The notes beneath the pieces are model-generated. The model was given only the letters and a program-made list of their open reading frames with translations, was not told the DNA's origin and ran no database searches. From Lingula anatina (lineage: Eukaryota > Animalia > Brachiopoda), in contig JBPQGU010000016.1 of NCBI GenBank assembly GCA_051362555.1, positions 6,138,001 through 6,202,000 on the forward strand: 64,000 bases of DNA, read 5' to 3'. The number at the start of each line of letters is the position of its first letter. Within the stretch, counting starts at the first letter, position 1. Below, one piece after another: positions 7,931 to 58,680 of the stretch. A program made the translations under genes and the position numbers.

Positions 7931-8131
7931 GTAAGTGTATTCTTAATTTTTTTTAATACATTAGAGTAAAAATTGTGGAAAAAAAATTGTTATTTAAGCA
8001 GCAATAATGCCACAATTTAATAACGTCACAAGCATATAGTGTTGTGTAACAAAGTTTCATGTATGACTAACTTCGGCAGAGTGCTCCTCAACTTTCCGTG
8101 CACTGCAGGTTTTTGATTTTCAATGTAATCT

Positions 8132-22888: not shown

Positions 22889-23730
22889 TTGCAAAATTAA
22901 ATTACTCTTAACACTTCACCTTATCTAAAACCATCTCTACTTCTATGTCTAAAACCAAGGAGTTATAACAGAAGGAGATTACACGCGTGGGGGCGGAGCC
23001 CGTATTACGGTCTCTCATTGGTCGGAATGAATAGAACCCAGAGAACAATGGATGCCTATCTCTGTTACGCTTAATTGCTACTCTCGTTTAAATCTCGTTT
23101 GTTAGTATCTGTGCCTTCGTCTGTTGATTTTTGAGGTCAGAAACAGAAACGGAGTCCCAAGTTTCTAAAAAATGAGAGAAATACAGAATTTATATGATAT
23201 TACGTTGGACAAGGTTTTCAAAAAACAGGTAAGTGCTTTTAAATGCATAACTACACGTAATATGAAGATAAATTGCAACTTTTATGTCGTAGGGTCTCAC
23301 TGTGTAAGTGTCCAGCTACATGTTGATCTCGCGAGGTGGTGTGTGGAGAATAAATATTGCACGAAAAATATTTCCCACTCATAACAAGTGCCTATAAATA
23401 TAGTATCAGATGAAGAAAGTTTGGTCTTTATACAGTTGCAATTGTTAAGTAATTTGTGGCAATAGCAAAGAGTAAAACTTAGGTGCACTTTCAGTAGCCG
23501 AATAACAAGCAGATGCTTAAGCCGCCATCTTGTTAATATTTCGAAAAAAAATTACTCCAAAAGACATTTTCCTCCTACTTTTTGAAACTTGTGTCACATG
23601 ACAGTCATAAAATTTAACTAATTGTTATGTGTGCAACACACTTGCTTGAGCAGTATTGTTTTTTTTTGCGATTTTACATGTGGTCTAGCTTGGATACGAC
23701 AATTGACAATTTTCATGAGTTCCGATCAAA

Positions 23731-25615
23731 AAGTGTTGGGGGTGGTCGGCTCATGTGTTGGGGGTGGTCGGCTCATGCCCTAGTTAGATTCCACTTTACC
23801 AAAATAACACGATTCAGAGCTGGGCCTCTGAGGACGTGTATTTTGACAGCGCCCCTTGCATGATTGAGAGCGACTTTTTGAGTGTGTAAGGCTTCTCGCC
23901 TTTATTATGAGGAAAGATCGTCTCTGATAGGAGGGTAGGTGTCTCACCTACATAGTATGAGATTTATAGATACCGATCTACATAGGGTGCCCTGAAAAGG
24001 GCATTTCGTGATTGGCACGATCGAGGCGTCTCGCCTTTCGAGGGAGGGGGGAGGGTGGACTGGTTGCAGAAAGCGCTTTTCGGTCAACAAGTGACCTTCA
24101 TCAGCTGCAGAGTCCGAGATAAAAAAAAAAGGAAAATTTTGGGACGTAGGGGCTGGTAAGCAAAGGTGTCTCGCCTTTGTTTAGTAAGTTTTCATCAATG
24201 GTGTCTCGCCATTGTGAATGATACGAGCCATCTCGGCTTAAAGTATCATGCTTTGTTCAGTCAGTTTTCATCAATGGTGTCTCGCCATTGTGAATGATAC
24301 GAGCCATCTCGGCTTTATAGTATCATGCTTGATCACAAGTGTCTCGCTTGTGTCAAGGTGGACGGTATGAATTGAGCGTGTGAATGGCTCAAGAGTCGGT
24401 GGTCGACTGAGGATTTGTCGAAATTGTGTCAAGTGCGAGAACGAGGCCGGGGTCTGATTGGTTGTTTTAGTTATGAGTTTTGATTGGCTGTTCTCGTGGT
24501 GCATCTTGATCCTATCTGTTTAGTTGTAGTTTGTTTGGTTTCATATTTGGCAAGGTTTTTTAACCTCGGATCAAATTTATAGTATTCTAATGCTGTGCAT
24601 ATGCGTGTTAACACTGAGCTTTCATTTGCTTAGTTTGTCTGTATAGTTTTCGGGCACCTTTTTTAATTTTGGAAGGCTTTGTCCTTGTTGCTTAGAGTAA
24701 AGTGGAGAAGGCATCTCGCCTTTTATTTGCGATGTGTGTGTCTTAAAAATAGACTGTGCCCTGTAATCGTTTAAAATTTGGTCTAAGTGGAATTGGGGCA
24801 TTTTGCTTTATCTCCAGAATGACTTTTTTCTTTATTGATTATAAATAAGTGTGGGGAGGGCATCTCGCCCTTTATTAGCGGTGTGATTTATTGCGCTCTA
24901 TTAGAACATTCAGGTTTAGCTTTTCCTGGTAGAGATGGTTGGCCCTGAAAAGGGCCGTTTTTCGAGGACGTAGGACCAGTGGCTTCTATTTTACAGTGTA
25001 GCTTTCTTTGCTGAGGTCAATCTTCGTTTCACTTTGCTGGCTAGCACGCGGCTTTTCTTCTTGTCCTTCATCGCTAGAATGAGGAGTCTCATTTGCTCCA
25101 TGATCTGGTTGTTGGCGGTCGTTGTTGCTGAGGTTCGGTTTTCTGGCGCGTATACACCGTGGATGTTGAAGTGCTCTTCCGCCCTGGATTCTCTCTCTTC
25201 TGCCTTTGCTAAGCTTTCCTTAGCTTTGTCAACGAACGCTTGCGTGTGGGCCTCGATCAGAGATTTAAGATCCGTTGCGGCCTTGTCTTGTATGTTGATC
25301 ATTGCTGCCAAGAGGACGTCGTCATCGGGGCATCCCCTGAAGTCTACACGGCATCTCACATGGTGGGCGTTGTTGCCGAGTTGTTTGAGCAGGTGGTCTG
25401 CCCAGTCAGAGCAGCCTTTCAGGTAAGTTTTTGCTCTAACGACTTCGTCGTGGTAGGGATTCCCGTTGATTCCTGGAGGGCCGGCTGTAATTGGCGCTGG
25501 TCTCTTGGGAATTCTCGCCCTGGGTGGTGCAGTGCTATGCCAGTTTTTTGATTCCATTTTTCTAGGTCCTTTCCATTCTCTAGGAGATCGTTTTCCTCTA
25601 AAACTTGTTTGTTTG
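23731..25615 (-). mobile_element. Diverged inverted partial copy of the 2575-bp hammerhead element (ORF to 3' end)
   Basis: Reverse complement aligns to the array unit with scattered substitutions and lacks one ~150-bp internal subrepeat. It ends in a tandemly duplicated 22-mer (23734-23777). Confidence 0.9.
24065..24109 (-). ncRNA. Minimal type-I hammerhead ribozyme
   Basis: Minus strand reads UGCAG-CUGAUGA-A-GGUCA-CUUGU-UGACC-GAAA-AGCGCU-UU-CUGCA. It is identical to the array copies although the flanks have diverged. Confidence 0.85.
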
Positions 25616-25638
25616 AGTGTTGGGGGTGGTGGGCTCAT
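24991..25638 (-). CDS. Basic/coiled-coil protein, diverged paralogue of the array ORF (likely start ATG at 25557, 188 aa)
   Basis: Aligns without gaps to the 209-aa array ORF with about 20 substitutions. The first ~9 codons come from across the junction at ~25615. Confidence 0.7.
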   Translation of the reverse strand: MSPPPPTLKQTSFRGKRSPREWKGPRKMESKNWHSTAPPRARIPKRPAPITAGPPGINGNPYHDEVVRAKTYLKGCSDWADHLLKQLGNNAHHVRCRVDFRGCPDDDVLLAAMINIQDKAATDLKSLIEAHTQAFVDKAKESLAKAEERESRAEEHFNIHGVYAPENRTSATTTANNQIMEQMRLLILAMKDKKKSRVLASKVKRRLTSAKKATL

Positions 25639-26084
25639 GACCTAGTTAGATTCCACTTTACCAGAATAACACGATTCAGAGCTGGGCCTCTGAGGACGTG
25701 TATTTTTACAGCGCCCCTTGCAGAGTAGACAGCGGCTCTTAGAGTGTGTTAGGCTTTTCGCCTTTATTATGAGAACCACTTGTCTTAGATAGGAAGGTAG
25801 GTGTCTCGCCTGCCTGGTATGAGATACATAGTCACTTATATATGTAGGGTGCCCTGAAAAGGACATTCCGTGCTGAGTAGAGAGCGACTCTTAGAGTGTG
25901 TTAGGCTTCTCGCCTTTATTATAGGGAAAGAGCGTCTAAATATAAGAGAGTAGGTGTCTCGCCTACTTCGTATGAGATTTATAGATACCGATCTACACAG
26001 GGGGCCCTGAAAAGGGCATTTCGTGATTGGCACAATAGAGGCGTCTCGCCTGTCGAGGGAAGGGGGAGGGTGGACTGGTTGCAG
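25616..26084 (-). mobile_element. Inverted 469-bp segment running from the ribozyme cleavage site to the element 3' end (pseudo-LTR-like)
   Basis: Reverse complement of 26694-27162; no differences seen by eye. Confidence 0.9.
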
Positions 26085-26653
26085 CCTTCCAAAATTAAAA
26101 GAGGTGCCCGAAACCTATACAGACCATCCCGGCAAATGAAAATTCAGTGTTAACACGCAAATGCACAGCATAAGAATACTAATAAATTTGATCCGAGGTT
26201 AAAAAACCTTGCCAAAAATGAAACCAAATAAACTACATCTAAACAGATAGGATCAAGATACACCACGAGAACAGCCAATCAAAACTCATAACTGAAACAA
26301 CCAATCAGATCGCGGCCTCGTTCTCGATTTGACACAATTTCAACAAATCCTCAGTCGACCTCCGACTCTTGAGCCATTCACACGCTCGATTCATACCGTC
26401 CACTTTGACACAAGCGAGACACTTGTGATCAAGCATGTTACTATAAAGCCGAGATGGCTTGTATCATTCACAATGGCGAGACACCATTGATGAAAATCAC
26501 TAAACAAAGCATGATACTTAAAAGCCGAGATGGCCCGTATCATCCACAATGGCGAGACACCATTGATGAAAACTTACTAAACAAAGGCGAGACACCTTTG
26601 CTTACCAGCCCTTACGTCCCTAAATTTTTCCTTTTTTTTCTTGAATCGGACTC

Positions 26654-26698
26654 TGCAGCTGATGAAGGTCACTTGTTGACCGAAAAGCGCTTTCTGCA
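26654..26698 (+). ncRNA. Minimal type-I hammerhead ribozyme (unit 1); predicted cleavage after 26693
   Basis: Stem I TGCAG/CTGCA; core CTGATGA plus one extra A; stem II GGTCA/TGACC; GAAA; palindromic stem III AAGCGCTT; UUU triplet. Confidence 0.85.
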
Positions 26699-27717
26699 AC
26701 CAGTCCACCCTCCCCCTTCCCTCGACAGGCGAGACGCCTCTATTGTGCCAATCACGAAATGCCCTTTTCAGGGCCCCCTGTGTAGATCGGTATCTATAAA
26801 TCTCATACGAAGTAGGCGAGACACCTACTCTCTTATATTTAGACGCTCTTTCCCTATAATAAAGGCGAGAAGCCTAACACACTCTAAGAGTCGCTCTCTA
26901 CTCAGCACGGAATGTCCTTTTCAGGGCACCCTACATATATAAGTGACTATGTATCTCATACCAGGCAGGCGAGACACCTACCTTCCTATCTAAGACAAGT
27001 GGTTCTCATAATAAAGGCGAAAAGCCTAACACACTCTAAGAGCCGCTGTCTACTCTGCAAGGGGCGCTGTAAAAATACACGTCCTCAGAGGCCCAGCTCT
27101 GAATCGTGTTATTCTGGTAAAGTGGAATCTAACTAGGTCATGAGCCCACCACCCCCAACACTTAAGCTATTTGGCCCTGGGGCCGGCCGCAATGTGGGAC
27201 TGTCCGAACCGGGAACCGTCCCTTAACACTGGTTATTTTGTAGCTAGTGTTTTGGGTACTGGCGTGACGGGGTTTTTTCTGCTTTATCAGAACACGCCTT
27301 AACCTACGGATCACAAGAAACAAAATGATCTATGTACCTAAATACACGAACATATGATAATGATAATCACATACCACGTAGGCGAGACAACTACGTTCCT
27401 ATTACTCACTAGGGAACAATAGTAATAATCAAGAAAACCTGACAAACAACCACTAAAACCAAAATTTACACTTGTCGGGGGATTCTGTGCATACATTCTT
27501 GAATAGTCAAGACATAAGACACCGGACAATGGCTTGACAATCAGCCAATCACAAAGCTCCTTAATGACACACTTTTAGAACCAACGGGAAGCACACAACA
27601 CCACATAGCTCCTTAACGTCGGTGCTCCCCTCAGCAGGGTGTATACTTAAAGCAGCACACTCTCAATGGAAGGCATAAGTCTGGCAATACAGCAATTTCT
27701 TTCACAACGCGCTCACT

Positions 27718-28347
27718 ATGTATCATCAAACAAGTATCAGAGGAAAACGATCTCCTAGGGAATGGAAAAAACCTAGAAAAATGGAATCAAAAATCTGGCA
27801 TAGCACTGCACCACCCAGGGGGAGAATCCCCAAGAGACCGGCGCCAATTACAGCCGGCCCCCCAGGAGTCAACGGCAACCCCTACCACGACGAAGTCGTC
27901 AGAACAAAAGCTTACCTGAAAGGCTGCTCTGACTGGGCGGATCACATGCTCACACAACTCAGCAACAACGCCCACCATGTCAGATGCCGTGTAGACTTCA
28001 GGGGGTGCCCTGATGACGACATCCTTCTGGCAGCAATGATCAACATACAAGACAAGGCCGCAACGGAGCTTAAATCCGCGATCGAGGCCCACACGCAAGC
28101 TTTCGTAGACAAAGCTAAGGAAAGCTTAGCAAAGGCAGAAGAGAGGGAATCCAGGGCGGAAGAGCACTTCAACATCCACGGCGTGTACACGCCAGGAAAC
28201 CAACCCTCTACTTCAACGACCACAAACAACCAGATCATGGAGCAAATGAGACTCCTCATTCTCGCCATGAAGGACAAGAAGAAGAGCCGCGTGCTAGCCA
28301 GCAAAGTGAAACGAAGACTAACCTCAGCCAAGAAAACTACACTGTAA
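27718..28347 (+). CDS. 209-aa basic/coiled-coil protein of unknown function (unit 1; second ATG at 27781)
   Basis: Intact ORF; Arg/Lys/Pro-rich N-terminus, helical central region, Lys/Arg-rich C-terminus; frame conserved in the diverged copy. Confidence 0.7.
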   Translation: MYHQTSIRGKRSPREWKKPRKMESKIWHSTAPPRGRIPKRPAPITAGPPGVNGNPYHDEVVRTKAYLKGCSDWADHMLTQLSNNAHHVRCRVDFRGCPDDDILLAAMINIQDKAATELKSAIEAHTQAFVDKAKESLAKAEERESRAEEHFNIHGVYTPGNQPSTSTTTNNQIMEQMRLLILAMKDKKKSRVLASKVKRRLTSAKKTTL

Positions 28348-29228
28348 AATAGAAGCCACTGCTTCTACGTCCTCGGGAAAAACGGCCCTTTTCAGGGCCA
28401 CCCATTTCTACCAGGAAAAGCCAAACCTGAATGTTCAAATAGAGCGCAAAAATGCAAATAAAAGGCGAGATGCCTTCCCCACACTTATTTATAATCAATA
28501 AAGAAAAGAAAAGTCATTCTGGAGATAAAGCAAAATGCCATAATCTCACTTAGACCAAATTTTAAACACTTACAGGGCACGATCGACTTATAAGACACAA
28601 ACATCGCAAATAAAAGGCGAGATGATATCTCAGTTTATTTATAAGCAACAAGGAAAAAGCCTTCCAAAATTAAAAGAGGTGCCCGAAACCTATACAGACC
28701 ATCCCGGCAAATGAAAATTCAGTGTTAACACGCAAATGCACAGCATAAGAATACTAATAAATTTGATCCGAGGTTAAAAAACCTTGCCAAAAATGAAACC
28801 AAATAAACTACATCTAAACAGATAGGATCAAGATACACCACGAGAACAGCCAATCAAAACTCATAACTGAAACAACCAATCAGATCGCGGCCTCGTTCTC
28901 GATTTGACACAATTTCAACAAATCCTCAGTCGACCTCCGACTCTTGAGCCATTCACACGCTCGATTCATACCGTCCACTTTGACACAAGCGAGACACTTG
29001 TGATCAAGCATGTTACTATAAAGCCGAGATGGCTTGTATCATTCACAATGGCGAGACACCATTGATGAAAATCACTAAACAAAGCATGATACTTAAAAGC
29101 CGAGATGGCCCGTATCATCCACAATGGCGAGACACCATTGATGAAAACTTACTAAACAAAGGCGAGACACCTTTGCTTACCAGCCCTTACGTCCCTAAAT
29201 TTTTCCTTTTTTTTCTTGAATCGGACTC

Positions 29229-29273
29229 TGCAGCTGATGAAGGTCACTTGTTGACCGAAAAGCGCTTTCTGCA
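29229..29273 (+). ncRNA. Minimal hammerhead ribozyme (unit 2)
   Basis: Identical to 26654-26698. Confidence 0.85.
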
Positions 29274-30292
29274 ACCAGTCCACCCTCCCCCTTCCCTCGA
29301 CAGGCGAGACGCCTCTATTGTGCCAATCACGAAATGCCCTTTTCAGGGCCCCCTGTGTAGATCGGTATCTATAAATCTCATACGAAGTAGGCGAGACACC
29401 TACTCTCTTATATTTAGACGCTCTTTCCCTATAATAAAGGCGAGAAGCCTAACACACTCTAAGAGTCGCTCTCTACTCAGCACGGAATGTCCTTTTCAGG
29501 GCACCCTACATATATAAGTGACTATGTATCTCATACCAGGCAGGCGAGACACCTACCTTCCTATCTAAGACAAGTGGTTCTCATAATAAAGGCGAAAAGC
29601 CTAACACACTCTAAGAGCCGCTGTCTACTCTGCAAGGGGCGCTGTAAAAATACACGTCCTCAGAGGCCCAGCTCTGAATCGTGTTATTCTGGTAAAGTGG
29701 AATCTAACTAGGTCATGAGCCCACCACCCCCAACACTTAAGCTATTTGGCCCTGGGGCCGGCCGCAATGTGGGACTGTCCGAACCGGGAACCGTCCCTTA
29801 ACACTGGTTATTTTGTAGCTAGTGTTTTGGGTACTGGCGTGACGGGTTTTTTTCTGCTTTATCAGAACACGCCTTAACCTACGGATCACAAGAAACAAAA
29901 TGATCTATGTACCTAAATACACGAACATATGATAATGATAATCACATACCACGTAGGCGAGACAACTACGTTCCTATTACTCACTAGGGAACAATAGTAA
30001 TAATCAAGAAAACCTGACAAACAACCACTAAAACCAAAATTTACACTTGTCGGGGGATTCTGTGCATACATTCTTGAATAGTCAAGACATAAGACACCGG
30101 ACAATGGCTTGACAATCAGCCAATCACAAAGCTCCTTAATGACACACTTTTAGAACCAACGGGAAGCACACAACACCACATAGCTCCTTAACGTCGGTGC
30201 TCCCCTCAGCAGGGTGTATACTTAAAGCAGCACACTCTCAATGGAAGGCATAAGTCTGGCAATACAGCAATTTCTTTCACAACGCGCTCACT

Positions 30293-30922
30293 ATGTATCA
30301 TCAAACAAGTATCAGAGGAAAACGATCTCCTAGGGAATGGAAAAAACCTAGAAAAATGGAATCAAAAAACTGGCATAGCACTGCACCACCCAGGGGGAGA
30401 ATCCCCAAGAGACCGGCGCCAATTACAGCCGGCCCCCCAGGAGTCAACGGCAACCCCTACCACGACGAAGTCGTCAGAACAAAAGCTTACCTGAAAGGCT
30501 GCTCTGACTGGGCGGATCACATGCTCACACAACTCAGCAACAACGCCCACCATGTCAGATGCCGTGTAGACTTCAGGGGGTGCCCTGATGACGACATCCT
30601 TCTGGCAGCAATGATCAACATACAAGACAAGGCCGCAACGGAGCTTAAATCCGCGATCGAGGCCCACACGCAAGCTTTCGTAGACAAAGCTAAGGAAAGC
30701 TTAGCAAAGGCAGAAGAGAGGGAATCCAGGGCGGAAGAGCACTTCAACATCCACGGCGTGTACACGCCAGGAAACCAACCCTCTACTTCAACGACCACAA
30801 ACAACCAGATCATGGAGCAAATGAGACTCCTCATTCTCGCCATGAAGGACAAGAAGAAGAGCCGCGTGCTAGCCAGCAAAGTGAAACGAAGACTAACCTC
30901 AGCCAAGAAAACTACACTGTAA
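30293..30922 (+). CDS. 209-aa basic/coiled-coil protein (unit 2)
   Basis: Repeat copy; differs from unit 1 by one residue (N versus I at position 26). Confidence 0.7.
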   Translation: MYHQTSIRGKRSPREWKKPRKMESKNWHSTAPPRGRIPKRPAPITAGPPGVNGNPYHDEVVRTKAYLKGCSDWADHMLTQLSNNAHHVRCRVDFRGCPDDDILLAAMINIQDKAATELKSAIEAHTQAFVDKAKESLAKAEERESRAEEHFNIHGVYTPGNQPSTSTTTNNQIMEQMRLLILAMKDKKKSRVLASKVKRRLTSAKKTTL

Positions 30923-31803
30923 AATAGAAGCCACTGCTTCTACGTCCTCGGGAAAAACGGCCCTTTTCAGGGCCACCCATTTCTACCAGGAAAAGCCAAA
31001 CCTGAATGTTCAAATAGAGCGCAAAAATGCAAATAAAAGGCGAGATGCCTTCCCCACACTTATTTATAATCAATAAAGAAAAGAAAAGTCATTCTGGAGA
31101 TAAAGCAAAATGCCATAATCTCACTTAGACCAAATTTTAAACACTTACAGGGCACGATCGACTTATAAGACACAAACATCGCAAATAAAAGGCGAGATGA
31201 TATCTCAGTTTATTTATAAGCAACAAGGAAAAAGCCTTCCAAAATTAAAAGAGGTGCCCGAAACCTATACAGACCATCCCGGCAAATGAAAATTCAGTGT
31301 TAACACGCAAATGCACAGCATAAGAATACTAATAAATTTGATCCGAGGTTAAAAAACCTTGCCAAAAATGAAACCAAATAAACTACATCTAAACAGATAG
31401 GATCAAGATACACCACGAGAACAGCCAATCAAAACTCATAACTGAAACAACCAATCAGATCGCGGCCTCGTTCTCGATTTGACACAATTTCAACAAATCC
31501 TCAGTCGACCTCCGACTCTTGAGCCATTCACACGCTCGATTCATACCGTCCACTTTGACACAAGCGAGACACTTGTGATCAAGCATGTTACTATAAAGCC
31601 GAGATGGCTTGTATCATTCACAATGGCGAGACACCATTGATGAAAATCACTAAACAAAGCATGATACTTAAAAGCCGAGATGGCCCGTATCATCCACAAT
31701 GGCGAGACACCATTGATGAAAACTTACTAAACAAAGGCGAGACACCTTTGCTTACCAGCCCTTACGTCCCTAAATTTTTCCTTTTTTTTCTTGAATCGGA
31801 CTC

Positions 31804-31848
31804 TGCAGCTGATGAAGGTCACTTGTTGACCGAAAAGCGCTTTCTGCA
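31804..31848 (+). ncRNA. Minimal hammerhead ribozyme (unit 3)
   Basis: Identical to 26654-26698. Confidence 0.85.
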
Positions 31849-32867
31849 ACCAGTCCACCCTCCCCCTTCCCTCGACAGGCGAGACGCCTCTATTGTGCCA
31901 ATCACGAAATGCCCTTTTCAGGGCCCCCTGTGTAGATCGGTATCTATAAATCTCATACGAAGTAGGCGAGACACCTACTCTCTTATATTTAGACGCTCTT
32001 TCCCTATAATAAAGGCGAGAAGCCTAACACACTCTAAGAGTCGCTCTCTACTCAGCACGGAATGTCCTTTTCAGGGCACCCTACATATATAAGTGACTAT
32101 GTATCTCATACCAGGCAGGCGAGACACCTACCTTCCTATCTAAGACAAGTGGTTCTCATAATAAAGGCGAAAAGCCTAACACACTCTAAGAGCCGCTGTC
32201 TACTCTGCAAGGGGCGCTGTAAAAATACACGTCCTCAGAGGCCCAGCTCTGAATCGTGTTATTCTGGTAAAGTGGAATCTAACTAGGTCATGAGCCCACC
32301 ACCCCCAACACTTAAGCTATTTGGCCCTGGGGCCGGCCGCAATGTGGGACTGTCCGAACCGGGAACCGTCCCTTAACACTGGTTATTTTGTAGCTAGTGT
32401 TTTGGGTACTGGCGTGACGGGGTTTTTTCTGCTTTATCAGAACACGCCTTAACCTACGGATCACAAGAAACAAAATGATCTATGTACCTAAATACACGAA
32501 CATATGATAATGATAATCACATACCACGTAGGCGAGACAACTACGTTCCTATTACTCACTAGGGAACAATAGTAATAATCAAGAAAACCTGACAAACAAC
32601 CACTAAAACCAAAATTTACACTTGTCGGGGGATTCTGTGCATACATTCTTGAATAGTCAAGACATAAGACACCGGACAATGGCTTGACAATCAGCCAATC
32701 ACAAAGCTCCTTAATGACACACTTTTAGAACCAACGGGAAGCACACAACACCACATAGCTCCTTAACGTCGGTGCTCCCCTCAGCAGGGTGTATACTTAA
32801 AGCAGCACACTCTCAATGGAAGGCATAAGTCTGGCAATACAGCAATTTCTTTCACAACGCGCTCACT

Positions 32868-33497
32868 ATGTATCATCAAACAAGTATCAGAGGAAAACGA
32901 TCTCCTAGGGAATGGAAAAAACCTAGAAAAATGGAATCAAAAAACTGGCATAGCACTGCACCACCCAGGGGGAGAATCCCCAAGAGACCGGCGCCAATTA
33001 CAGCCGGCCCCCCAGGAGTCAACGGCAACCCCTACCACGACGAAGTCGTCAGAACAAAAGCTTACCTGAAAGGCTGCTCTGACTGGGCGGATCACATGCT
33101 CACACAACTCAGCAACAACGCCCACCATGTCAGATGCCGTGTAGACTTCAGGGGGTGCCCTGATGACGACATCCTTCTGGCAGCAATGATCAACATACAA
33201 GACAAGGCCGCAACGGAGCTTAAATCCGCGATCGAGGCCCACACGCAAGCTTTCGTAGACAAAGCTAAGGAAAGCTTAGCAAAGGCAGAAGAGAGGGAAT
33301 CCAGGGCGGAAGAGCACTTCAACATCCACGGCGTGTACACGCCAGGAAACCAACCCTCTACTTCAACGACCACAAACAACCAGATCATGGAGCAAATGAG
33401 ACTCCTCATTCTCGCCATGAAGGACAAGAAGAAGAGCCGCGTGCTAGCCAGCAAAGTGAAACGAAGACTAACCTCAGCCAAGAAAACTACACTGTAA
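32868..33497 (+). CDS. 209-aa basic/coiled-coil protein (unit 3)
   Basis: Repeat copy. Confidence 0.7.
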   Translation: MYHQTSIRGKRSPREWKKPRKMESKNWHSTAPPRGRIPKRPAPITAGPPGVNGNPYHDEVVRTKAYLKGCSDWADHMLTQLSNNAHHVRCRVDFRGCPDDDILLAAMINIQDKAATELKSAIEAHTQAFVDKAKESLAKAEERESRAEEHFNIHGVYTPGNQPSTSTTTNNQIMEQMRLLILAMKDKKKSRVLASKVKRRLTSAKKTTL

Positions 33498-34378
33498 AAT
33501 AGAAGCCACTGCTTCTACGTCCTCGGGAAAAACGGCCCTTTTCAGGGCCACCCATTTCTACCAGGAAAAGCCAAACCTGAATGTTCAAATAGAGCGCAAA
33601 AATGCAAATAAAAGGCGAGATGCCTTCCCCACACTTATTTATAATCAATAAAGAAAAGAAAAGTCATTCTGGAGATAAAGCAAAATGCCATAATCTCACT
33701 TAGACCAAATTTTAAACACTTACAGGGCACGATCGACTTATAAGACACAAACATCGCAAATAAAAGGCGAGATGATATCTCAGTTTATTTATAAGCAACA
33801 AGGAAAAAGCCTTCCAAAATTAAAAGAGGTGCCCGAAACCTATACAGACCATCCCGGCAAATGAAAATTCAGTGTTAACACGCAAATGCACAGCATAAGA
33901 ATACTAATAAATTTGATCCGAGGTTAAAAAACCTTGCCAAAAATGAAACCAAATAAACTACATCTAAACAGATAGGATCAAGATACACCACGAGAACAGC
34001 CAATCAAAACTCATAACTGAAACAACCAATCAGATCGCGGCCTCGTTCTCGATTTGACACAATTTCAACAAATCCTCAGTCGACCTCCGACTCTTGAGCC
34101 ATTCACACGCTCGATTCATACCGTCCACTTTGACACAAGCGAGACACTTGTGATCAAGCATGTTACTATAAAGCCGAGATGGCTTGTATCATTCACAATG
34201 GCGAGACACCATTGATGAAAATCACTAAACAAAGCATGATACTTAAAAGCCGAGATGGCCCGTATCATCCACAATGGCGAGACACCATTGATGAAAACTT
34301 ACTAAACAAAGGCGAGACACCTTTGCTTACCAGCCCTTACGTCCCTAAATTTTTCCTTTTTTTTCTTGAATCGGACTC

Positions 34379-34423
34379 TGCAGCTGATGAAGGTCACTTG
34401 TTGACCGAAAAGCGCTTTCTGCA
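34379..34423 (+). ncRNA. Minimal hammerhead ribozyme (unit 4)
   Basis: Identical to 26654-26698. Confidence 0.85.
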
Positions 34424-35442
34424 ACCAGTCCACCCTCCCCCTTCCCTCGACAGGCGAGACGCCTCTATTGTGCCAATCACGAAATGCCCTTTTCAGGGCC
34501 CCCTGTGTAGATCGGTATCTATAAATCTCATACGAAGTAGGCGAGACACCTACTCTCTTATATTTAGACGCTCTTTCCCTATAATAAAGGCGAGAAGCCT
34601 AACACACTCTAAGAGTCGCTCTCTACTCAGCACGGAATGTCCTTTTCAGGGCACCCTACATATATAAGTGACTATGTATCTCATACCAGGCAGGCGAGAC
34701 ACCTACCTTCCTATCTAAGACAAGTGGTTCTCATAATAAAGGCGAAAAGCCTAACACACTCTAAGAGCCGCTGTCTACTCTGCAAGGGGCGCTGTAAAAA
34801 TACACGTCCTCAGAGGCCCAGCTCTGAATCGTGTTATTCTGGTAAAGTGGAATCTAACTAGGTCATGAGCCCACCACCCCCAACACTTAAGCTATTTGGC
34901 CCTGGGGCCGGCCGCAATGTGGGACTGTCCGAACCGGGAACCGTCCCTTAACACTGGTTATTTTGTAGCTAGTGTTTTGGGTACTGGCGTGACGGGGTTT
35001 TTTCTGCTTTATCAGAACACGCCTTAACCTACGGATCACAAGAAACAAAATGATCTATGTACCTAAATACACGAACATATGATAATGATAATCACATACC
35101 ACGTAGGCGAGACAACTACGTTCCTATTACTCACTAGGGAACAATAGTAATAATCAAGAAAACCTGACAAACAACCACTAAAACCAAAATTTACACTTGT
35201 CGGGGGATTCTGTGCATACATTCTTGAATAGTCAAGACATAAGACACCGGACAATGGCTTGACAATCAGCCAATCACAAAGCTCCTTAATGACACACTTT
35301 TAGAACCAACGGGAAGCACACAACACCACATAGCTCCTTAACGTCGGTGCTCCCCTCAGCAGGGTGTATACTTAAAGCAGCACACTCTCAATGGAAGGCA
35401 TAAGTCTGGCAATACAGCAATTTCTTTCACAACGCGCTCACT

Positions 35443-36072
35443 ATGTATCATCAAACAAGTATCAGAGGAAAACGATCTCCTAGGGAATGGAAAAAACCTA
35501 GAAAAATGGAATCAAAAAACTGGCATAGCACTGCACCACCCAGGGGGAGAATCCCCAAGAGACCGGCGCCAATTACAGCCGGCCCCCCAGGAGTCAACGG
35601 CAACCCCTACCACGACGAAGTCGTCAGAACAAAAGCTTACCTGAAAGGCTGCTCTGACTGGGCGGATCACATGCTCACACAACTCAGCAACAACGCCCAC
35701 CATGTCAGATGCCGTGTAGACTTCAGGGGGTGCCCTGATGACGACATCCTTCTGGCAGCAATGATCAACATACAAGACAAGGCCGCAACGGAGCTTAAAT
35801 CCGCGATCGAGGCCCACACGCAAGCTTTCGTAGACAAAGCTAAGGAAAGCTTAGCAAAGGCAGAAGAGAGGGAATCCAGGGCGGAAGAGCACTTCAACAT
35901 CCACGGCGTGTACACGCCAGGAAACCAACCCTCTACTTCAACGACCACAAACAACCAGATCATGGAGCAAATGAGACTCCTCATTCTCGCCATGAAGGAC
36001 AAGAAGAAGAGCCGCGTGCTAGCCAGCAAAGTGAAACGAAGACTAACCTCAGCCAAGAAAACTACACTGTAA
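35443..36072 (+). CDS. 209-aa basic/coiled-coil protein (unit 4)
   Basis: Repeat copy. Confidence 0.7.
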   Translation: MYHQTSIRGKRSPREWKKPRKMESKNWHSTAPPRGRIPKRPAPITAGPPGVNGNPYHDEVVRTKAYLKGCSDWADHMLTQLSNNAHHVRCRVDFRGCPDDDILLAAMINIQDKAATELKSAIEAHTQAFVDKAKESLAKAEERESRAEEHFNIHGVYTPGNQPSTSTTTNNQIMEQMRLLILAMKDKKKSRVLASKVKRRLTSAKKTTL

Positions 36073-36953
36073 AATAGAAGCCACTGCTTCTACGTCCTCG
36101 GGAAAAACGGCCCTTTTCAGGGCCACCCATTTCTACCAGGAAAAGCCAAACCTGAATGTTCAAATAGAGCGCAAAAATGCAAATAAAAGGCGAGATGCCT
36201 TCCCCACACTTATTTATAATCAATAAAGAAAAGAAAAGTCATTCTGGAGATAAAGCAAAATGCCATAATCTCACTTAGACCAAATTTTAAACACTTACAG
36301 GGCACGATCGACTTATAAGACACAAACATCGCAAATAAAAGGCGAGATGATATCTCAGTTTATTTATAAGCAACAAGGAAAAAGCCTTCCAAAATTAAAA
36401 GAGGTGCCCGAAACCTATACAGACCATCCCGGCAAATGAAAATTCAGTGTTAACACGCAAATGCACAGCATAAGAATACTAATAAATTTGATCCGAGGTT
36501 AAAAAACCTTGCCAAAAATGAAACCAAATAAACTACATCTAAACAGATAGGATCAAGATACACCACGAGAACAGCCAATCAAAACTCATAACTGAAACAA
36601 CCAATCAGATCGCGGCCTCGTTCTCGATTTGACACAATTTCAACAAATCCTCAGTCGACCTCCGACTCTTGAGCCATTCACACGCTCGATTCATACCGTC
36701 CACTTTGACACAAGCGAGACACTTGTGATCAAGCATGTTACTATAAAGCCGAGATGGCTTGTATCATTCACAATGGCGAGACACCATTGATGAAAATCAC
36801 TAAACAAAGCATGATACTTAAAAGCCGAGATGGCCCGTATCATCCACAATGGCGAGACACCATTGATGAAAACTTACTAAACAAAGGCGAGACACCTTTG
36901 CTTACCAGCCCTTACGTCCCTAAATTTTTCCTTTTTTTTCTTGAATCGGACTC

Positions 36954-36998
36954 TGCAGCTGATGAAGGTCACTTGTTGACCGAAAAGCGCTTTCTGCA
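36954..36998 (+). ncRNA. Minimal hammerhead ribozyme (unit 5)
   Basis: Identical to 26654-26698. Confidence 0.85.
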
Positions 36999-38017
36999 AC
37001 CAGTCCACCCTCCCCCTTCCCTCGACAGGCGAGACGCCTCTATTGTGCCAATCACGAAATGCCCTTTTCAGGGCCCCCTGTGTAGATCGGTATCTATAAA
37101 TCTCATACGAAGTAGGCGAGACACCTACTCTCTTATATTTAGACGCTCTTTCCCTATAATAAAGGCGAGAAGCCTAACACACTCTAAGAGTCGCTCTCTA
37201 CTCAGCACGGAATGTCCTTTTCAGGGCACCCTACATATATAAGTGACTATGTATCTCATACCAGGCAGGCGAGACACCTACCTTCCTATCTAAGACAAGT
37301 GGTTCTCATAATAAAGGCGAAAAGCCTAACACACTCTAAGAGCCGCTGTCTACTCTGCAAGGGGCGCTGTAAAAATACACGTCCTCAGAGGCCCAGCTCT
37401 GAATCGTGTTATTCTGGTAAAGTGGAATCTAACTAGGTCATGAGCCCACCACCCCCAACACTTAAGCTATTTGGCCCTGGGGCCGGCCGCAATGTGGGAC
37501 TGTCCGAACCGGGAACCGTCCCTTAACACTGGTTATTTTGTAGCTAGTGTTTTGGGTACTGGCGTGACGGGGTTTTTTCTGCTTTATCAGAACACGCCTT
37601 AACCTACGGATCACAAGAAACAAAATGATCTATGTACCTAAATACACGAACATATGATAATGATAATCACATACCACGTAGGCGAGACAACTACGTTCCT
37701 ATTACTCACTAGGGAACAATAGTAATAATCAAGAAAACCTGACAAACAACCACTAAAACCAAAATTTACACTTGTCGGGGGATTCTGTGCATACATTCTT
37801 GAATAGTCAAGACATAAGACACCGGACAATGGCTTGACAATCAGCCAATCACAAAGCTCCTTAATGACACACTTTTAGAACCAACGGGAAGCACACAACA
37901 CCACATAGCTCCTTAACGTCGGTGCTCCCCTCAGCAGGGTGTATACTTAAAGCAGCACACTCTCAATGGAAGGCATAAGTCTGGCAATACAGCAATTTCT
38001 TTCACAACGCGCTCACT

Positions 38018-38647
38018 ATGTATCATCAAACAAGTATCAGAGGAAAACGATCTCCTAGGGAATGGAAAAAACCTAGAAAAATGGAATCAAAAAACTGGCA
38101 TAGCACTGCACCACCCAGGGGGAGAATCCCCAAGAGACCGGCGCCAATTACAGCCGGCCCCCCAGGAGTCAACGGCAACCCCTACCACGACGAAGTCGTC
38201 AGAACAAAAGCTTACCTGAAAGGCTGCTCTGACTGGGCGGATCACATGCTCACACAACTCAGCAACAACGCCCACCATGTCAGATGCCGTGTAGACTTCA
38301 GGGGGTGCCCTGATGACGACATCCTTCTGGCAGCAATGATCAACATACAAGACAAGGCCGCAACGGAGCTTAAATCCGCGATCGAGGCCCACACGCAAGC
38401 TTTCGTAGACAAAGCTAAGGAAAGCTTAGCAAAGGCAGAAGAGAGGGAATCCAGGGCGGAAGAGCACTTCAACATCCACGGCGTGTACACGCCAGGAAAC
38501 CAACCCTCTACTTCAACGACCACAAACAACCAGATCATGGAGCAAATGAGACTCCTCATTCTCGCCATGAAGGACAAGAAGAAGAGCCGCGTGCTAGCCA
38601 GCAAAGTGAAACGAAGACTAACCTCAGCCAAGAAAACTACACTGTAA
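38018..38647 (+). CDS. 209-aa basic/coiled-coil protein (unit 5)
   Basis: Repeat copy. Confidence 0.7.
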   Translation: MYHQTSIRGKRSPREWKKPRKMESKNWHSTAPPRGRIPKRPAPITAGPPGVNGNPYHDEVVRTKAYLKGCSDWADHMLTQLSNNAHHVRCRVDFRGCPDDDILLAAMINIQDKAATELKSAIEAHTQAFVDKAKESLAKAEERESRAEEHFNIHGVYTPGNQPSTSTTTNNQIMEQMRLLILAMKDKKKSRVLASKVKRRLTSAKKTTL

Positions 38648-39528
38648 AATAGAAGCCACTGCTTCTACGTCCTCGGGAAAAACGGCCCTTTTCAGGGCCA
38701 CCCATTTCTACCAGGAAAAGCCAAACCTGAATGTTCAAATAGAGCGCAAAAATGCAAATAAAAGGCGAGATGCCTTCCCCACACTTATTTATAATCAATA
38801 AAGAAAAGAAAAGTCATTCTGGAGATAAAGCAAAATGCCATAATCTCACTTAGACCAAATTTTAAACACTTACAGGGCACGATCGACTTATAAGACACAA
38901 ACATCGCAAATAAAAGGCGAGATGATATCTCAGTTTATTTATAAGCAACAAGGAAAAAGCCTTCCAAAATTAAAAGAGGTGCCCGAAACCTATACAGACC
39001 ATCCCGGCAAATGAAAATTCAGTGTTAACACGCAAATGCACAGCATAAGAATACTAATAAATTTGATCCGAGGTTAAAAAACCTTGCCAAAAATGAAACC
39101 AAATAAACTACATCTAAACAGATAGGATCAAGATACACCACGAGAACAGCCAATCAAAACTCATAACTGAAACAACCAATCAGATCGCGGCCTCGTTCTC
39201 GATTTGACACAATTTCAACAAATCCTCAGTCGACCTCCGACTCTTGAGCCATTCACACGCTCGATTCATACCGTCCACTTTGACACAAGCGAGACACTTG
39301 TGATCAAGCATGTTACTATAAAGCCGAGATGGCTTGTATCATTCACAATGGCGAGACACCATTGATGAAAATCACTAAACAAAGCATGATACTTAAAAGC
39401 CGAGATGGCCCGTATCATCCACAATGGCGAGACACCATTGATGAAAACTTACTAAACAAAGGCGAGACACCTTTGCTTACCAGCCCTTACGTCCCTAAAT
39501 TTTTCCTTTTTTTTCTTGAATCGGACTC

Positions 39529-39573
39529 TGCAGCTGATGAAGGTCACTTGTTGACCGAAAAGCGCTTTCTGCA
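39529..39573 (+). ncRNA. Minimal hammerhead ribozyme (unit 6)
   Basis: Identical to 26654-26698. Confidence 0.85.
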
Positions 39574-40592
39574 ACCAGTCCACCCTCCCCCTTCCCTCGA
39601 CAGGCGAGACGCCTCTATTGTGCCAATCACGAAATGCCCTTTTCAGGGCCCCCTGTGTAGATCGGTATCTATAAATCTCATACGAAGTAGGCGAGACACC
39701 TACTCTCTTATATTTAGACGCTCTTTCCCTATAATAAAGGCGAGAAGCCTAACACACTCTAAGAGTCGCTCTCTACTCAGCACGGAATGTCCTTTTCAGG
39801 GCACCCTACATATATAAGTGACTATGTATCTCATACCAGGCAGGCGAGACACCTACCTTCCTATCTAAGACAAGTGGTTCTCATAATAAAGGCGAAAAGC
39901 CTAACACACTCTAAGAGCCGCTGTCTACTCTGCAAGGGGCGCTGTAAAAATACACGTCCTCAGAGGCCCAGCTCTGAATCGTGTTATTCTGGTAAAGTGG
40001 AATCTAACTAGGTCATGAGCCCACCACCCCCAACACTTAAGCTATTTGGCCCTGGGGCCGGCCGCAATGTGGGACTGTCCGAACCGGGAACCGTCCCTTA
40101 ACACTGGTTATTTTGTAGCTAGTGTTTTGGGTACTGGCGTGACGGGGTTTTTTCTGCTTTATCAGAACACGCCTTAACCTACGGATCACAAGAAACAAAA
40201 TGATCTATGTACCTAAATACACGAACATATGATAATGATAATCACATACCACGTAGGCGAGACAACTACGTTCCTATTACTCACTAGGGAACAATAGTAA
40301 TAATCAAGAAAACCTGACAAACAACCACTAAAACCAAAATTTACACTTGTCGGGGGATTCTGTGCATACATTCTTGAATAGTCAAGACATAAGACACCGG
40401 ACAATGGCTTGACAATCAGCCAATCACAAAGCTCCTTAATGACACACTTTTAGAACCAACGGGAAGCACACAACACCACATAGCTCCTTAACGTCGGTGC
40501 TCCCCTCAGCAGGGTGTATACTTAAAGCAGCACACTCTCAATGGAAGGCATAAGTCTGGCAATACAGCAATTTCTTTCACAACGCGCTCACT

Positions 40593-41222
40593 ATGTATCA
40601 TCAAACAAGTATCAGAGGAAAACGATCTCCTAGGGAATGGAAAAAACCTAGAAAAATGGAATCAAAAAACTGGCATAGCACTGCACCACCCAGGGGGAGA
40701 ATCCCCAAGAGACCGGCGCCAATTACAGCCGGCCCCCCAGGAGTCAACGGCAACCCCTACCACGACGAAGTCGTCAGAACAAAAGCTTACCTGAAAGGCT
40801 GCTCTGACTGGGCGGATCACATGCTCACACAACTCAGCAACAACGCCCACCATGTCAGATGCCGTGTAGACTTCAGGGGGTGCCCTGATGACGACATCCT
40901 TCTGGCAGCAATGATCAACATACAAGACAAGGCCGCAACGGAGCTTAAATCCGCGATCGAGGCCCACACGCAAGCTTTCGTAGACAAAGCTAAGGAAAGC
41001 TTAGCAAAGGCAGAAGAGAGGGAATCCAGGGCGGAAGAGCACTTCAACATCCACGGCGTGTACACGCCAGGAAACCAACCCTCTACTTCAACGACCACAA
41101 ACAACCAGATCATGGAGCAAATGAGACTCCTCATTCTCGCCATGAAGGACAAGAAGAAGAGCCGCGTGCTAGCCAGCAAAGTGAAACGAAGACTAACCTC
41201 AGCCAAGAAAACTACACTGTAA
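40593..41222 (+). CDS. 209-aa basic/coiled-coil protein (unit 6)
   Basis: Repeat copy. Confidence 0.7.
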   Translation: MYHQTSIRGKRSPREWKKPRKMESKNWHSTAPPRGRIPKRPAPITAGPPGVNGNPYHDEVVRTKAYLKGCSDWADHMLTQLSNNAHHVRCRVDFRGCPDDDILLAAMINIQDKAATELKSAIEAHTQAFVDKAKESLAKAEERESRAEEHFNIHGVYTPGNQPSTSTTTNNQIMEQMRLLILAMKDKKKSRVLASKVKRRLTSAKKTTL

Positions 41223-42103
41223 AATAGAAGCCACTGCTTCTACGTCCTCGGGAAAAACGGCCCTTTTCAGGGCCACCCATTTCTACCAGGAAAAGCCAAA
41301 CCTGAATGTTCAAATAGAGCGCAAAAATGCAAATAAAAGGCGAGATGCCTTCCCCACACTTATTTATAATCAATAAAGAAAAGAAAAGTCATTCTGGAGA
41401 TAAAGCAAAATGCCATAATCTCACTTAGACCAAATTTTAAACACTTACAGGGCACGATCGACTTATAAGACACAAACATCGCAAATAAAAGGCGAGATGA
41501 TATCTCAGTTTATTTATAAGCAACAAGGAAAAAGCCTTCCAAAATTAAAAGAGGTGCCCGAAACCTATACAGACCATCCCGGCAAATGAAAATTCAGTGT
41601 TAACACGCAAATGCACAGCATAAGAATACTAATAAATTTGATCCGAGGTTAAAAAACCTTGCCAAAAATGAAACCAAATAAACTACATCTAAACAGATAG
41701 GATCAAGATACACCACGAGAACAGCCAATCAAAACTCATAACTGAAACAACCAATCAGATCGCGGCCTCGTTCTCGATTTGACACAATTTCAACAAATCC
41801 TCAGTCGACCTCCGACTCTTGAGCCATTCACACGCTCGATTCATACCGTCCACTTTGACACAAGCGAGACACTTGTGATCAAGCATGTTACTATAAAGCC
41901 GAGATGGCTTGTATCATTCACAATGGCGAGACACCATTGATGAAAATCACTAAACAAAGCATGATACTTAAAAGCCGAGATGGCCCGTATCATCCACAAT
42001 GGCGAGACACCATTGATGAAAACTTACTAAACAAAGGCGAGACACCTTTGCTTACCAGCCCTTACGTCCCTAAATTTTTCCTTTTTTTTCTTGAATCGGA
42101 CTC

Positions 42104-42148
42104 TGCAGCTGATGAAGGTCACTTGTTGACCGAAAAGCGCTTTCTGCA
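42104..42148 (+). ncRNA. Minimal hammerhead ribozyme (unit 7)
   Basis: Identical to 26654-26698. Confidence 0.85.
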
Positions 42149-43167
42149 ACCAGTCCACCCTCCCCCTTCCCTCGACAGGCGAGACGCCTCTATTGTGCCA
42201 ATCACGAAATGCCCTTTTCAGGGCCCCCTGTGTAGATCGGTATCTATAAATCTCATACGAAGTAGGCGAGACACCTACTCTCTTATATTTAGACGCTCTT
42301 TCCCTATAATAAAGGCGAGAAGCCTAACACACTCTAAGAGTCGCTCTCTACTCAGCACGGAATGTCCTTTTCAGGGCACCCTACATATATAAGTGACTAT
42401 GTATCTCATACCAGGCAGGCGAGACACCTACCTTCCTATCTAAGACAAGTGGTTCTCATAATAAAGGCGAAAAGCCTAACACACTCTAAGAGCCGCTGTC
42501 TACTCTGCAAGGGGCGCTGTAAAAATACACGTCCTCAGAGGCCCAGCTCTGAATCGTGTTATTCTGGTAAAGTGGAATCTAACTAGGTCATGAGCCCACC
42601 ACCCCCAACACTTAAGCTATTTGGCCCTGGGGCCGGCCGCAATGTGGGACTGTCCGAACCGGGAACCGTCCCTTAACACTGGTTATTTTGTAGCTAGTGT
42701 TTTGGGTACTGGCGTGACGGGGTTTTTTCTGCTTCATCAGAACACGCCTTAACCTACGGATCACAAGAAACAAAATGATCTATGTACCTAAATACACGAA
42801 CATATGATAATGATAATCACATACCACGTAGGCGAGACAACTACGTTCCTATTACTCACTAGGGAACAATAGTAATAATCAAGAAAACCTGACAAACAAC
42901 CACTAAAACCAAAATTTACACTTGTCGGGGGATTCTGTGCATACATTCTTGAATAGTCAAGACATAAGACACCGGACAATGGCTTGACAATCAGCCAATC
43001 ACAAAGCTCCTTAATGACACACTTTTAGAACCAACGGGAAGCACACAACACCACATAGCTCCTTAACGTCGGTGCTCCCCTCAGCAGGGTGTATACTTAA
43101 AGCAGCACACTCTCAATGGAAGGCATAAGTCTGGCAATACAGCAATTTCTTTCACAACGCGCTCACT

Positions 43168-43796
43168 ATGTATCATCAAACAAGTATCAGAGGAAAACGA
43201 TCTCCTAGGGAATGGAAAAAACCTAGAAAAATGGAATCAAAAAACTGGCATAGCACTGCACCACCCAGGGGGAGAATCCCCAAGAGACCGGCGCCAATTA
43301 CAGCCGGCCCCCCAGGAGTCAACGGCAACCCCTACCACGACGAAGTCGTCAGAACAAAAGCTTACCTGAAAGGCTGCTCTGACTGGGCGGATCACATGCT
43401 CACACAACTCAGCAACAACGCCCACCATGTCAGATGCCGTGTAGACTTCAGGGGGTGCCCTGATGACGACATCCTTCTGGCAGCAATGATCAACATACAA
43501 GACAAGGCCGCAACGGAGCTTAATCCGCGATCGAGGCCCACACGCAAGCTTTCGTAGACAAAGCTAAGGAAAGCTTAGCAAAGGCAGAAGAGAGGGAATC
43601 CAGGGCGGAAGAGCACTTCAACATCCACGGCGTGTACACGCCAGGAAACCAACCCTCTACTTCAACGACCACAAACAACCAGATCATGGAGCAAATGAGA
43701 CTCCTCATTCTCGCCATGAAGGACAAGAAGAAGAGCCGCGTGCTAGCCAGCAAAGTGAAACGAAGACTAACCTCAGCCAAGAAAACTACACTGTAA
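43168..43796 (+). pseudogene. Frameshifted copy of the 209-aa ORF (unit 7)
   Basis: CTTAATCC instead of CTTAAATCC at ~43522, a 1-nt deletion; either a mutation or a sequencing error. Confidence 0.7.
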
Positions 43797-43904
43797 AATA
43801 GAAGCCACTGCTTCTACGTCCTCGGGAAAAACGGCCCTTTTCAGGGGTATTTTTGTGAATTTATGAAATTTTTGTAAGTTCATTGTTAAATGGTGAATGA
43901 CAGC

Positions 43905-44420
43905 AGTCAGAAGGTTCACTGGTCTGATAGTTTGATGATGCCAACATCCAATGGTTCAAAAGGTTCAGTAGTCAGAAGGTTCATTGGTCTGATATTGTTT
44001 AATGATGCCAAGATCCAATGGTTTAAAAGGTTCAATAGTCAGAAGGTTCATTGGTCTGATAGTTAGATGATGCCAAGATCCAATGGTTTAAAAGGTTCAA
44101 TAATCAGAAGGTTCATTGGTCTGATAGTTTGATGATGCCAAGATCCAATGGTTTAAAAGGTTCAATAGTCAGAAGGTTCATTGGTCTGATAGTTTGATGA
44201 TGCCAAGATCCAATGGTTCAAAAGGTTTTATAATAGTCAGAAGGTTCATTGGTCTGATAGTTTGATGATGCCAAGATCCAATGGTTCAAAAGGTTTTATA
44301 ATAGTCAGAAGGTTCATTGGTCTGATAGTTTGAAGATGTAAATGTCCAGCTGTTCCAAAGGTGTGCTAGTCAGAAGGTTCACTTGCATGAGGTTTCATTG
44401 GTTCAGAGGTTGTATAGTCT
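43905..44420 (+). repeat. ~64-66 bp minisatellite, about 7 copies
   Basis: Repeated AGTCAGAAGGTTCATTGGTCTGATAGTTTGATGATGCCAAGATCCAATGGTT. Confidence 0.9.
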
Positions 44421-58593: not shown

Positions 58594-58680
58594 AGAATCT
58601 TTTGAAATGAATGAAATGTTTGTCACATTAAGCTTTAAAGTCTCAGTTAAGACCAACGAAATTCTTCTTACGAAAAAGAA

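Follow-up and report, generated by a model that had tools for sequence, protein, structure and literature searches.

What an orphan open reading frame (ORF) encodes, and which kind of element has multiplied it, is the question raised by a locus of the brachiopod Lingula anatina (assembly GCA_051362555.1, contig JBPQGU010000016.1, positions 6,138,001 to 6,202,000 of the forward strand), where the same frame recurs along a tandem array. All positions below refer to the window, i.e., the whole stretch of 64,000 nucleotides that was analysed. The ORF (27718..28347, plus strand) encodes 209 aa from M1 or 188 aa from M22 (27781), and in the preceding sequence-only reading it was taken for a basic coiled-coil protein under constraint. 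The answer reached here, on which confidence is evenly divided, is that the ORF belongs to a 2575-bp hammerhead ribozyme repeat without reverse transcriptase (RT), which would be served in trans by an RT of the Penelope type and whose protein likely binds or packages its own RNA.

The unit is a 2575-bp tandem repeat found as six full and two partial near-identical copies, together with inverted pieces. The head-to-tail array (26085..43846, plus strand) comprises one 5'-truncated unit, the six full units, and a final partial unit ending within the histone stem-loop; further intact ORF copies follow at steps of 2575 bp (30293, 32868, 35443, 38018, and 40593, plus strand), and the copy at 43168 (plus strand) has a 1-nt deletion. 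Along the plus strand the unit is composed of a promoter-like segment, the ORF, a histone 3' stem-loop, a spacer, a hammerhead, 153-bp sub-repeats, and an AC-rich end. The 550-bp 5' segment (27168..27717, plus strand) is a likely internal promoter, with CAAT/CCAAT boxes near 27527-27550 and, at about 27642 on the same strand, a box resembling TATA, TATACTTAAA, all read by eye. The terminal, pLTR-like segment (26694..27162, plus strand) extends from the predicted hammerhead cut to the AC-rich 3' end CCACCACCCCCAACAC, which is about 460 nt from the hammerhead, and its 153-bp sub-repeats include two degenerate histone-like stem-loops (about 26760 and 26913), both without a downstream element. The spacer behind the stem-loop folds better than its shuffles (z of -4.0, 20 shuffles). 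Among all frames of at least 60 aa in the circular unit there was no ORF for RT or for a GIY-YIG endonuclease. The units differ by private changes only, 4 in about 17.7 kb, one of them N25I in the first array copy, which is absent from the five other full units and from the inverted copy. As read from the assembled sequence, with the copy number taken as assembled and an assembly error possible, such a pattern would fit independent copying of one template.

The strongest result concerns the ORF itself. Next to the array lies copy B (23733..25611, minus strand), a sister subfamily about 90% identical to the array copies (A), which carries the ORF, the stem-loop, the hairpins described below, the hammerhead, and a 3' end with a 22-bp tandem duplication; it is truncated at the start of the ORF and thus has no promoter segment. 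The ORF and this minus-strand paralogue, which ends at 24991, were aligned over 609 nt, from R8 to the stop (202 codons plus stop), with no indels, no internal stops, and a common stop codon, as had been noticed by eye. For this one pair of copies 29 synonymous changes on 139 sites and 22 nonsynonymous changes on 467 sites were counted, giving a dN/dS of 0.20 (Fisher p 4e-8), so that the constraint proposed earlier was borne out by the calculation that had been suggested for it. The differences are distributed over the codon positions as 16/7/28, third positions accounting for 28 of the 51, while the other five frames of the same region have 2-17 stops and higher ratios (0.46-2.7). In neutral simulations with an equal number of substitutions (n = 20,000) the mean was 34.6 ± 3.0 amino-acid changes versus 19 observed, none of the 20,000 being as low, and a stop was gained in 79% of them. 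The adjoining noncoding DNA differs at 89 of 1232 aligned nt (7.2%) and has 16 gap events, a few of which come from one absent 153-bp sub-repeat; this agrees with the indels claimed for the neighbouring DNA, and the same rate would lead to 6-8 indels in the ORF (probability of none <0.002).

Changes are also unevenly placed: the 17-codon Thr/Ser linker, singled out in the sequence-only reading, holds 7 of the 19 changed codons, and the basic tail (37 codons) has 5 synonymous codon changes and 1 nonsynonymous between A and B. Synonymous divergence (21%) exceeds noncoding divergence (7%), which implies that the noncoding part is itself constrained or homogenised. According to these data the ORF is almost certainly a real gene under selection. 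Two other frames were considered and rejected: an antisense ORF of 108/115 aa, because the other frames of the ORF region show no selection, and a 162-aa ORF over the hammerhead, because indels between A and B cross that region.

Behind the stop codon a histone 3' stem-loop with its downstream element (28379..28423, plus strand) is recognised by the Rfam model RF00032, scoring 36.6 bits in six units against a gathering score of 34, and 32 bits in copy B. The stem-loop proper (28384-28399) is followed by ACCCA and by the purine-rich CAGGAAAAG at 28412-28420 (plus strand), and both the ACCCA and CAGGAAAAG, which is present in A and B, are nearly unchanged in the paralogue. In the 16-nt stem-loop, stem position 2 is G-C and loop position 3 is U, and the conserved motif starts 31 nt past the stop codon; the norm is 25-60 nt in the available part of bioRxiv 10.64898/2026.10.14.759114 (bivalve histone ends are treated in PMC6210712, likewise available in part). 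Histone mRNAs are called the sole cellular mRNAs without poly(A) in the accessible portion of PMC4604434. Histone-type processing of the ORF mRNA is on this ground somewhat favoured. The product is no histone as far as was searched, since Pfam and the PDB sequences gave neither a histone-fold nor a linker-histone match and two long helices are predicted.

The mobile character of the unit is indicated by its ribozyme. Each unit has one minimal type I hammerhead of the dimer type (26654..26698, plus strand in the first), seven lying on the plus strand at 2575-bp steps and one in the inverted copy. The conserved core is present with a 5-bp helix I, an extra A after A9, and a 5-bp helix II, and the helix III region is palindromic, AAAGCGCUUU, pairing between two copies according to the monomer fold and the dimer cofold. 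The motif is identical in A and B and occurs in one polarity only; the Rfam scan reports no hammerhead in the window. The predicted cut falls after U26693, at UUU, which is a poor cleavage triplet for hammerheads. Minimal hammerheads with these traits sit in the terminal repeats of metazoan Penelope-like elements (PLEs) and cleave weakly in vitro, as stated in the available text of PMC4209133, and in PMC11167929 the insertion of an Anolis PLE did not need cleavage, no RNA ends being seen at the cut.

The anatomy of the insertion leads in the same direction. An inverted copy of the terminal segment (25616..26084, minus strand, 469 bp) is identical to 26694-27162, begins at the predicted cut, ends at the AC-rich site, and shares a 2-nt microhomology at its start with the start of the array. 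Its start at the cut, a 3-nt window in 2575, would be met by chance in about 0.1%, for a single case noticed post hoc, and suggests that self-cleaved RNA was reverse-transcribed. Two independent pieces, this one and copy B, end at the same AC-rich site, and in accessible parts of the literature the PLE RT starts in an AC-rich site (PMC11167929) and PLE insertions combine a partial tandem with a neighbouring copy that is inverted and 5'-truncated (PMC8557442), an arrangement present in the window. No PLE tail of 30-40 bp was recognised, two ends lying at the AC-rich site and the right end 1.2 kb further, and no target-site duplication was seen at the array. The right end (43846) falls inside the stem-loop, and 7 nt separate it from the site at which processing would be expected. 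Two origins are conceivable, namely, reverse transcription that started from a trimmed histone-type 3' end, or a subsequent deletion. Taken together, these features make it likely that the unit is a nonautonomous element mobilised by PLEs, a link that rests on architecture and not on shared sequence.

Related elements were sought in metagenome and viral contigs. The pattern scans gave chance matches only or none, and the scans for related loci found none. In the metagenome the combined hammerhead and stem-loop pattern matched 26 loci, 24 of which had no good helix II, and in viral contigs it had no match. One locus detected twice (L001/L002) was dropped like all the others, since its motif lies in the intron of a homeobox gene and its "stem-loop" is a splice acceptor. 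The motif there (L001, 82-125) is a loop-less minimal hammerhead-like sequence in an intron of a PBX-like gene on a metagenome contig. Within the window a dispersed family of 159-bp tandem sub-repeats (1790-3200, 8130-8880, 11600-12000, 14750-15500, and 59280-59970) matches the loose hammerhead core CTGATGA...GAAA, when the core pattern alone is compared.

The protein bears net charges of +11 in residues 1-45 and +10 in residues 185-209 around a neutral-to-acidic core, so that the basic N-terminus and the NLS-like tail described from the sequence were both recovered. The helical character was supported as well by AlphaFold on a three-sequence alignment, with the correction that the core is predicted as a hairpin of two antiparallel helices (residues about 55-90 and 101-154), most of whose length has a pLDDT of about 72-85, in a model of overall pLDDT 66 and pTM 0.48 with low-confidence ends; the single-sequence model was poor (pLDDT 58), and a homodimer prediction score of 0.02 is evidence neither way. 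Foldseek with the alignment model gave no match at E 0.001 or better in PDB and BFVD, and VIA-align returned generic helical-hairpin matches only (best Z 8.7, 7% identity), essentially covering residues 28-134 of the model.

The sole remote homologue among 1.84 billion representatives is P0001 (170 aa, E 2.2e-6, 32% identity over residues 36-161), a singleton from a 1420-bp contig. Both proteins have RIPK, PPG-N, C70, W73, H87, H125, and HG-Y. Only C70 of the three Cys is retained in P0001 and no conserved metal-binding spacing is seen, hence the Cys/His-containing middle, which had been pointed out in the sequence-only reading, was rejected as a metal-binding domain. P0001 is neutral (pI 7.1) and has no NLS-like basic tail, which weakens the idea of a conserved nucleic-acid-binding role. 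Translation may start at M1 or M22, P0001 beginning near M22; two short upstream or overlapping ORFs (27667-27759, 30 codons; 27762-27776, 4 codons), the latter retained in copy B, precede M22 and both bear on the choice of ATG. The ORF protein had no match in Pfam or among PDB sequences and no usable match in the ESM Atlas or in PHROGs (best E 0.04), and a word-index protein search and three-sequence profile searches among longer and near-length proteins, the former being weak, added nothing to P0001. The protein represents a real, unnamed family.

A possible ligand is provided by the unit itself. An array of hairpins with C-GAGA(C/U)-(G/A) tops and varying stems (28459..29606, plus strand) lies on both sides of the hammerhead. 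Neither this array nor the histone stem-loop nor the hammerhead had been noticed in the sequence-only reading. The loose motif has 18 matches per unit, 11 of them with at least 3 outer pairs versus 0.18 in shuffles (at most 2 among 1000), and in copy B 11 of 16 matches have at least 3 outer pairs. Covariation was estimated on 25 hand-picked instances (20 distinct), namely, 22 with at least 3 outer pairs and 3 of the GCGAGA type with fewer, the remaining loose matches being left out. All 7 pairs have double changes, and the score of 0.32 was reached by none of 500 shuffles and was far above that of every slid control; the motif was picked after sighting, the rows were chosen largely for pairing, and several hairpins derive from internal duplications of 76 and 153 bp and are hence nonindependent. 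Between copies A and B one A-U pair is exchanged for G-C. An RNA-binding or packaging role of the protein is, on these grounds, put forward tentatively, at somewhat less than an even chance.

The same motif may be read as DNA. GGCGAGA occurs 10 times on the plus strand of the unit and once in the remaining 43.8 kb of the window, and the protein of the same element could be an anti-silencing or drive factor that binds, e.g., this heptamer in double-stranded form. Plant VANDAL transposons use VANC proteins as anti-silencing factors, the NLS-like tail is strongly conserved between A and B, and expression in S phase or in oocytes would suit a chromatin role. However, the motif sits in covarying stems, which points to folded single strands and not to double-stranded sites, and the fold searches with Foldseek and VIA-align, which tested little beyond residues 28-134 of the model, yielded generic helical hairpins with no DNA-binding fold among them. 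This explanation is considered unlikely, and the hairpins are discussed below as putative RNA sites of the packaging protein.

RNA reads were considered from four of nine runs with the same species label, 6-25% of each run's reads being aligned to one unit; 26, 9, 104, and 71 reads were aligned per run, mostly 88-99% alike, and they represent a family of diverged copies. At 29646, 29689, 29713, and 29722 the B-type alleles are dominant in reads of other individuals (e.g., 15 of 15 second-direction reads at 29689 in run X1), which indicates that B is a subfamily and not a decayed copy. Most reads of runs X4, X5, and X7 come from the last 800 nt on the 3' side and show many loose ends, as 5'-truncated copies would give, and in four X4 reads, read by eye, the loose end continues the frame as a more diverged variant. 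In X1 reads the 3' end is joined to the promoter in diverged copies, a junction that tandem DNA gives as well as circular RNA. In one of the four runs the ORF is covered to a depth of 0-5 reads, and in a second a short stretch of it reaches a depth of at most 4; all ORF reads have their first mate on the plus strand, which in most stranded libraries means antisense, the library strand being uncalibrated here. No sense ORF mRNA was demonstrated in the four runs, and no pile-up at the stem-loop or at the hammerhead cut was seen at their low depth; poly(A) selection, by which histone-type mRNA would be lost, had been applied to two or more of the four libraries. As a separate observation, six X4 reads with a loose end before 29665 join the inverted last bases of the element to a copy truncated about 70 nt from its 3' end, i.e., the same inverted-end layout at another locus.

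These reads bear on the possibility that the ORF began as an orphan gene of the host, already with a histone-type 3' end, which became enclosed by PLE terminal repeats and was then amplified; the selection would in this case reflect a host function. Movement of host genes in trans by PLE terminal repeats is reported in the available text of PMC3846280, and the shortness of P0001 would agree with such an origin. Against such a capture, A and B share the whole spacer, the hairpins, and the hammerhead and have diverged as one linked unit with 21% synonymous divergence, and the junction of 3' end and promoter is found in other diverged copies. Both facts indicate that the ORF was selected while inside the element, so capture of a host gene is regarded as improbable relative to a gene belonging to the mobile repeat.

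A more distant possibility is that the ORF is the leftover ORF1 or N-terminal domain of an autonomous element of the Penelope or Athena type, with selection inherited from the parent. The PLE context is favourable to it; in the accessible part of PMC11167929 a long pair of helices (residues 27-173) is predicted at the N-terminus of an Anolis PLE, and Terminons carry coiled-coil ORFs (PMC6431247, available in part). The analogy to Athena ORF1 or to the Penelope N-terminus drawn in the sequence-only reading is accordingly reasonable as regards the long helical PLE N-terminus, whereas homology was not detected in any search: no long homologue was present among the 1.84 billion representatives or in the weak search of longer proteins, and no Athena or Penelope protein appeared there, in Pfam, or among PDB sequences. 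In addition, the stop, the stem-loop, and the downstream element are conserved behind the ORF, and the hammerhead, which overlaps the ORF start in the Anolis element (PMC11167929, same portion), lies about 1 kb away here. The leftover reading is thus quite unlikely compared with an ORF serving the repeat in its present form. An endogenised coding circular RNA, delta-like or viroid-like, is highly improbable. Its basic helical ORF of about 200 aa, ribozyme, and head-to-tail multimers are matched here, but delta-like agents have ribozymes on both polarities and a rod-like fold, and the unit has a hammerhead core on one polarity only (ribozyme classes other than the hammerhead being checked through Rfam), a ribozyme strand whose circular fold pairs only 55% of its bases, a strong strand skew, nuclear promoter boxes with a histone end, and no delta-antigen match in Pfam.

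For the Penelope-mobilised repeat the following sequence of events can be proposed. From the internal CCAAT/TATA promoter a short ORF mRNA would be transcribed, which would be cut behind the stem-loop by SLBP/U7/CPSF73 to give a message that has no poly(A) and follows the timing of histone mRNA (S phase, oocyte). A second RNA would arise by read-through over several units; its hammerheads would pair as dimers and cut, releasing unit-length linear or circular RNA. The Penelope-type RT/endonuclease of an autonomous partner would then start in the AC-rich end and copy round or along this RNA, which could generate tandem and inverted insertions. In the least certain step the helical-hairpin protein with basic ends would coat the RNA through the repeated GAGA-loop hairpins, similarly to ORF1-type chaperones, and would thereby favour its own element. 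The complete scheme, i.e., a protein-coding retrozyme that is a satellite-like circular-RNA element parasitising PLEs and that expresses an RNA-packaging protein of a new family via the SLBP/U7 pathway in S phase or oocytes, with the GAGA hairpins as binding sites, is possible but doubtful as a whole.

Several known systems are close to the element, as far as they are described in the available portions of the works cited. Animal non-LTR retrozymes are 51-972 bp long and described as noncoding (Li, Clavereau and Pollet 2026, bioRxiv 10.64898/2026.07.22.740005), mussel retrozymes measuring about 350-390 bp (Cervera and de la Pena 2020, PMC7229834), and most families have at most 7 units. They share with the present element one type I hammerhead per tandem unit, the lack of RT, and a likely derivation from PLEs with likely rolling-circle copying; unlike them, it has a unit of 2575 bp, a selected gene of 188-209 aa, a histone 3' end, and a hairpin array. 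With endonuclease-bearing PLEs and derivatives such as Chlamydomonas MRC1 (PMC4209133, PMC8557442, and PMC11167929) it has in common a minimal hammerhead of the dimer type in which one extra nucleotide precedes helix II, the partial tandems, the adjacent inverted 5'-truncated copy, the AC-rich 3' end, and an AT-rich flank; unlike them, it has no RT or GIY-YIG domain and no recognised 30-40 bp tail, and an unrelated gene is aboard. Bdelloid Terminons/Athena (PMC6431247) are likewise hammerhead-ended retroelements with an accessory coiled-coil ORF and head-to-tail arrays, but they code for RT, extend to 40 kb, and are attached to telomeres via complementary repeats beside the hammerhead, whereas the present unit has one gene, is intrachromosomal, and has no detected homology to them. 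The stem-loop, the stop distance, the purine-rich element, the intronless ORF, and the CCAAT/TATA-like boxes are as in replication-dependent histone genes (RF00032; PMC4604434), from which the unit differs by a nonhistone product and a gene situated within a mobile repeat. Finally, PLE-mediated capture in Adineta vaga (PMC3846280) likewise involved movement in trans of a gene flanked by PLE terminal repeats; there it was a one-off copy of a host gene, while here a lasting family of at least two subfamilies shows selection inside the element.

The literature search turned up neither a protein-coding retrozyme nor a PLE carrying a histone stem-loop; most subscription papers, Repbase, and supplements lay outside this search, so a Repbase entry or a supplement may hold such a family. 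The element touches two general statements, that animal retrozymes are noncoding and that histone mRNAs are the sole cellular stem-loop mRNAs. If the proposed mechanism is true, the genome itself would provide evidence, in the junction at the predicted cut, that PLE reverse transcription uses self-cleaved RNA as a template. The locus could serve as a test system for the action of SLBP/U7 on nonhistone mobile RNAs, for the in vivo relevance of PLE hammerhead cleavage, which is dispensable in vitro, and for the question whether nonautonomous retroelements can retain a helper protein of their own.

Some neighbouring features deserve mention on their own account. At 54300-58950 there is a DIRS-type tyrosine-recombinase retrotransposon with a gag-like ORF, an ORF for RT/RNase H/methyltransferase (55918-57789), an overlapping recombinase ORF in pieces, and an inverted-repeat-like right end; a link between it and the array 10 kb away was rejected, since no sequence is shared. 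Its gag-like ORF is interrupted at 54748-55070 (minus strand) by two tandem copies, with a 191-bp step, of a tRNA-derived SINE-like sequence, and Rfam tRNA matches fall at 54781-54854 and 54972-55045. A 65-bp tandem repeat of 7.2 copies (43905-44381) starts 60 bp past the right end of the array. On the other side, at 22990-23240 (plus strand), a possible host promoter and first exon were noticed by eye (GC box, ATTGG, and a donor CAG/GTAAGT at about 23230), which, if real, would place the element within a first intron.
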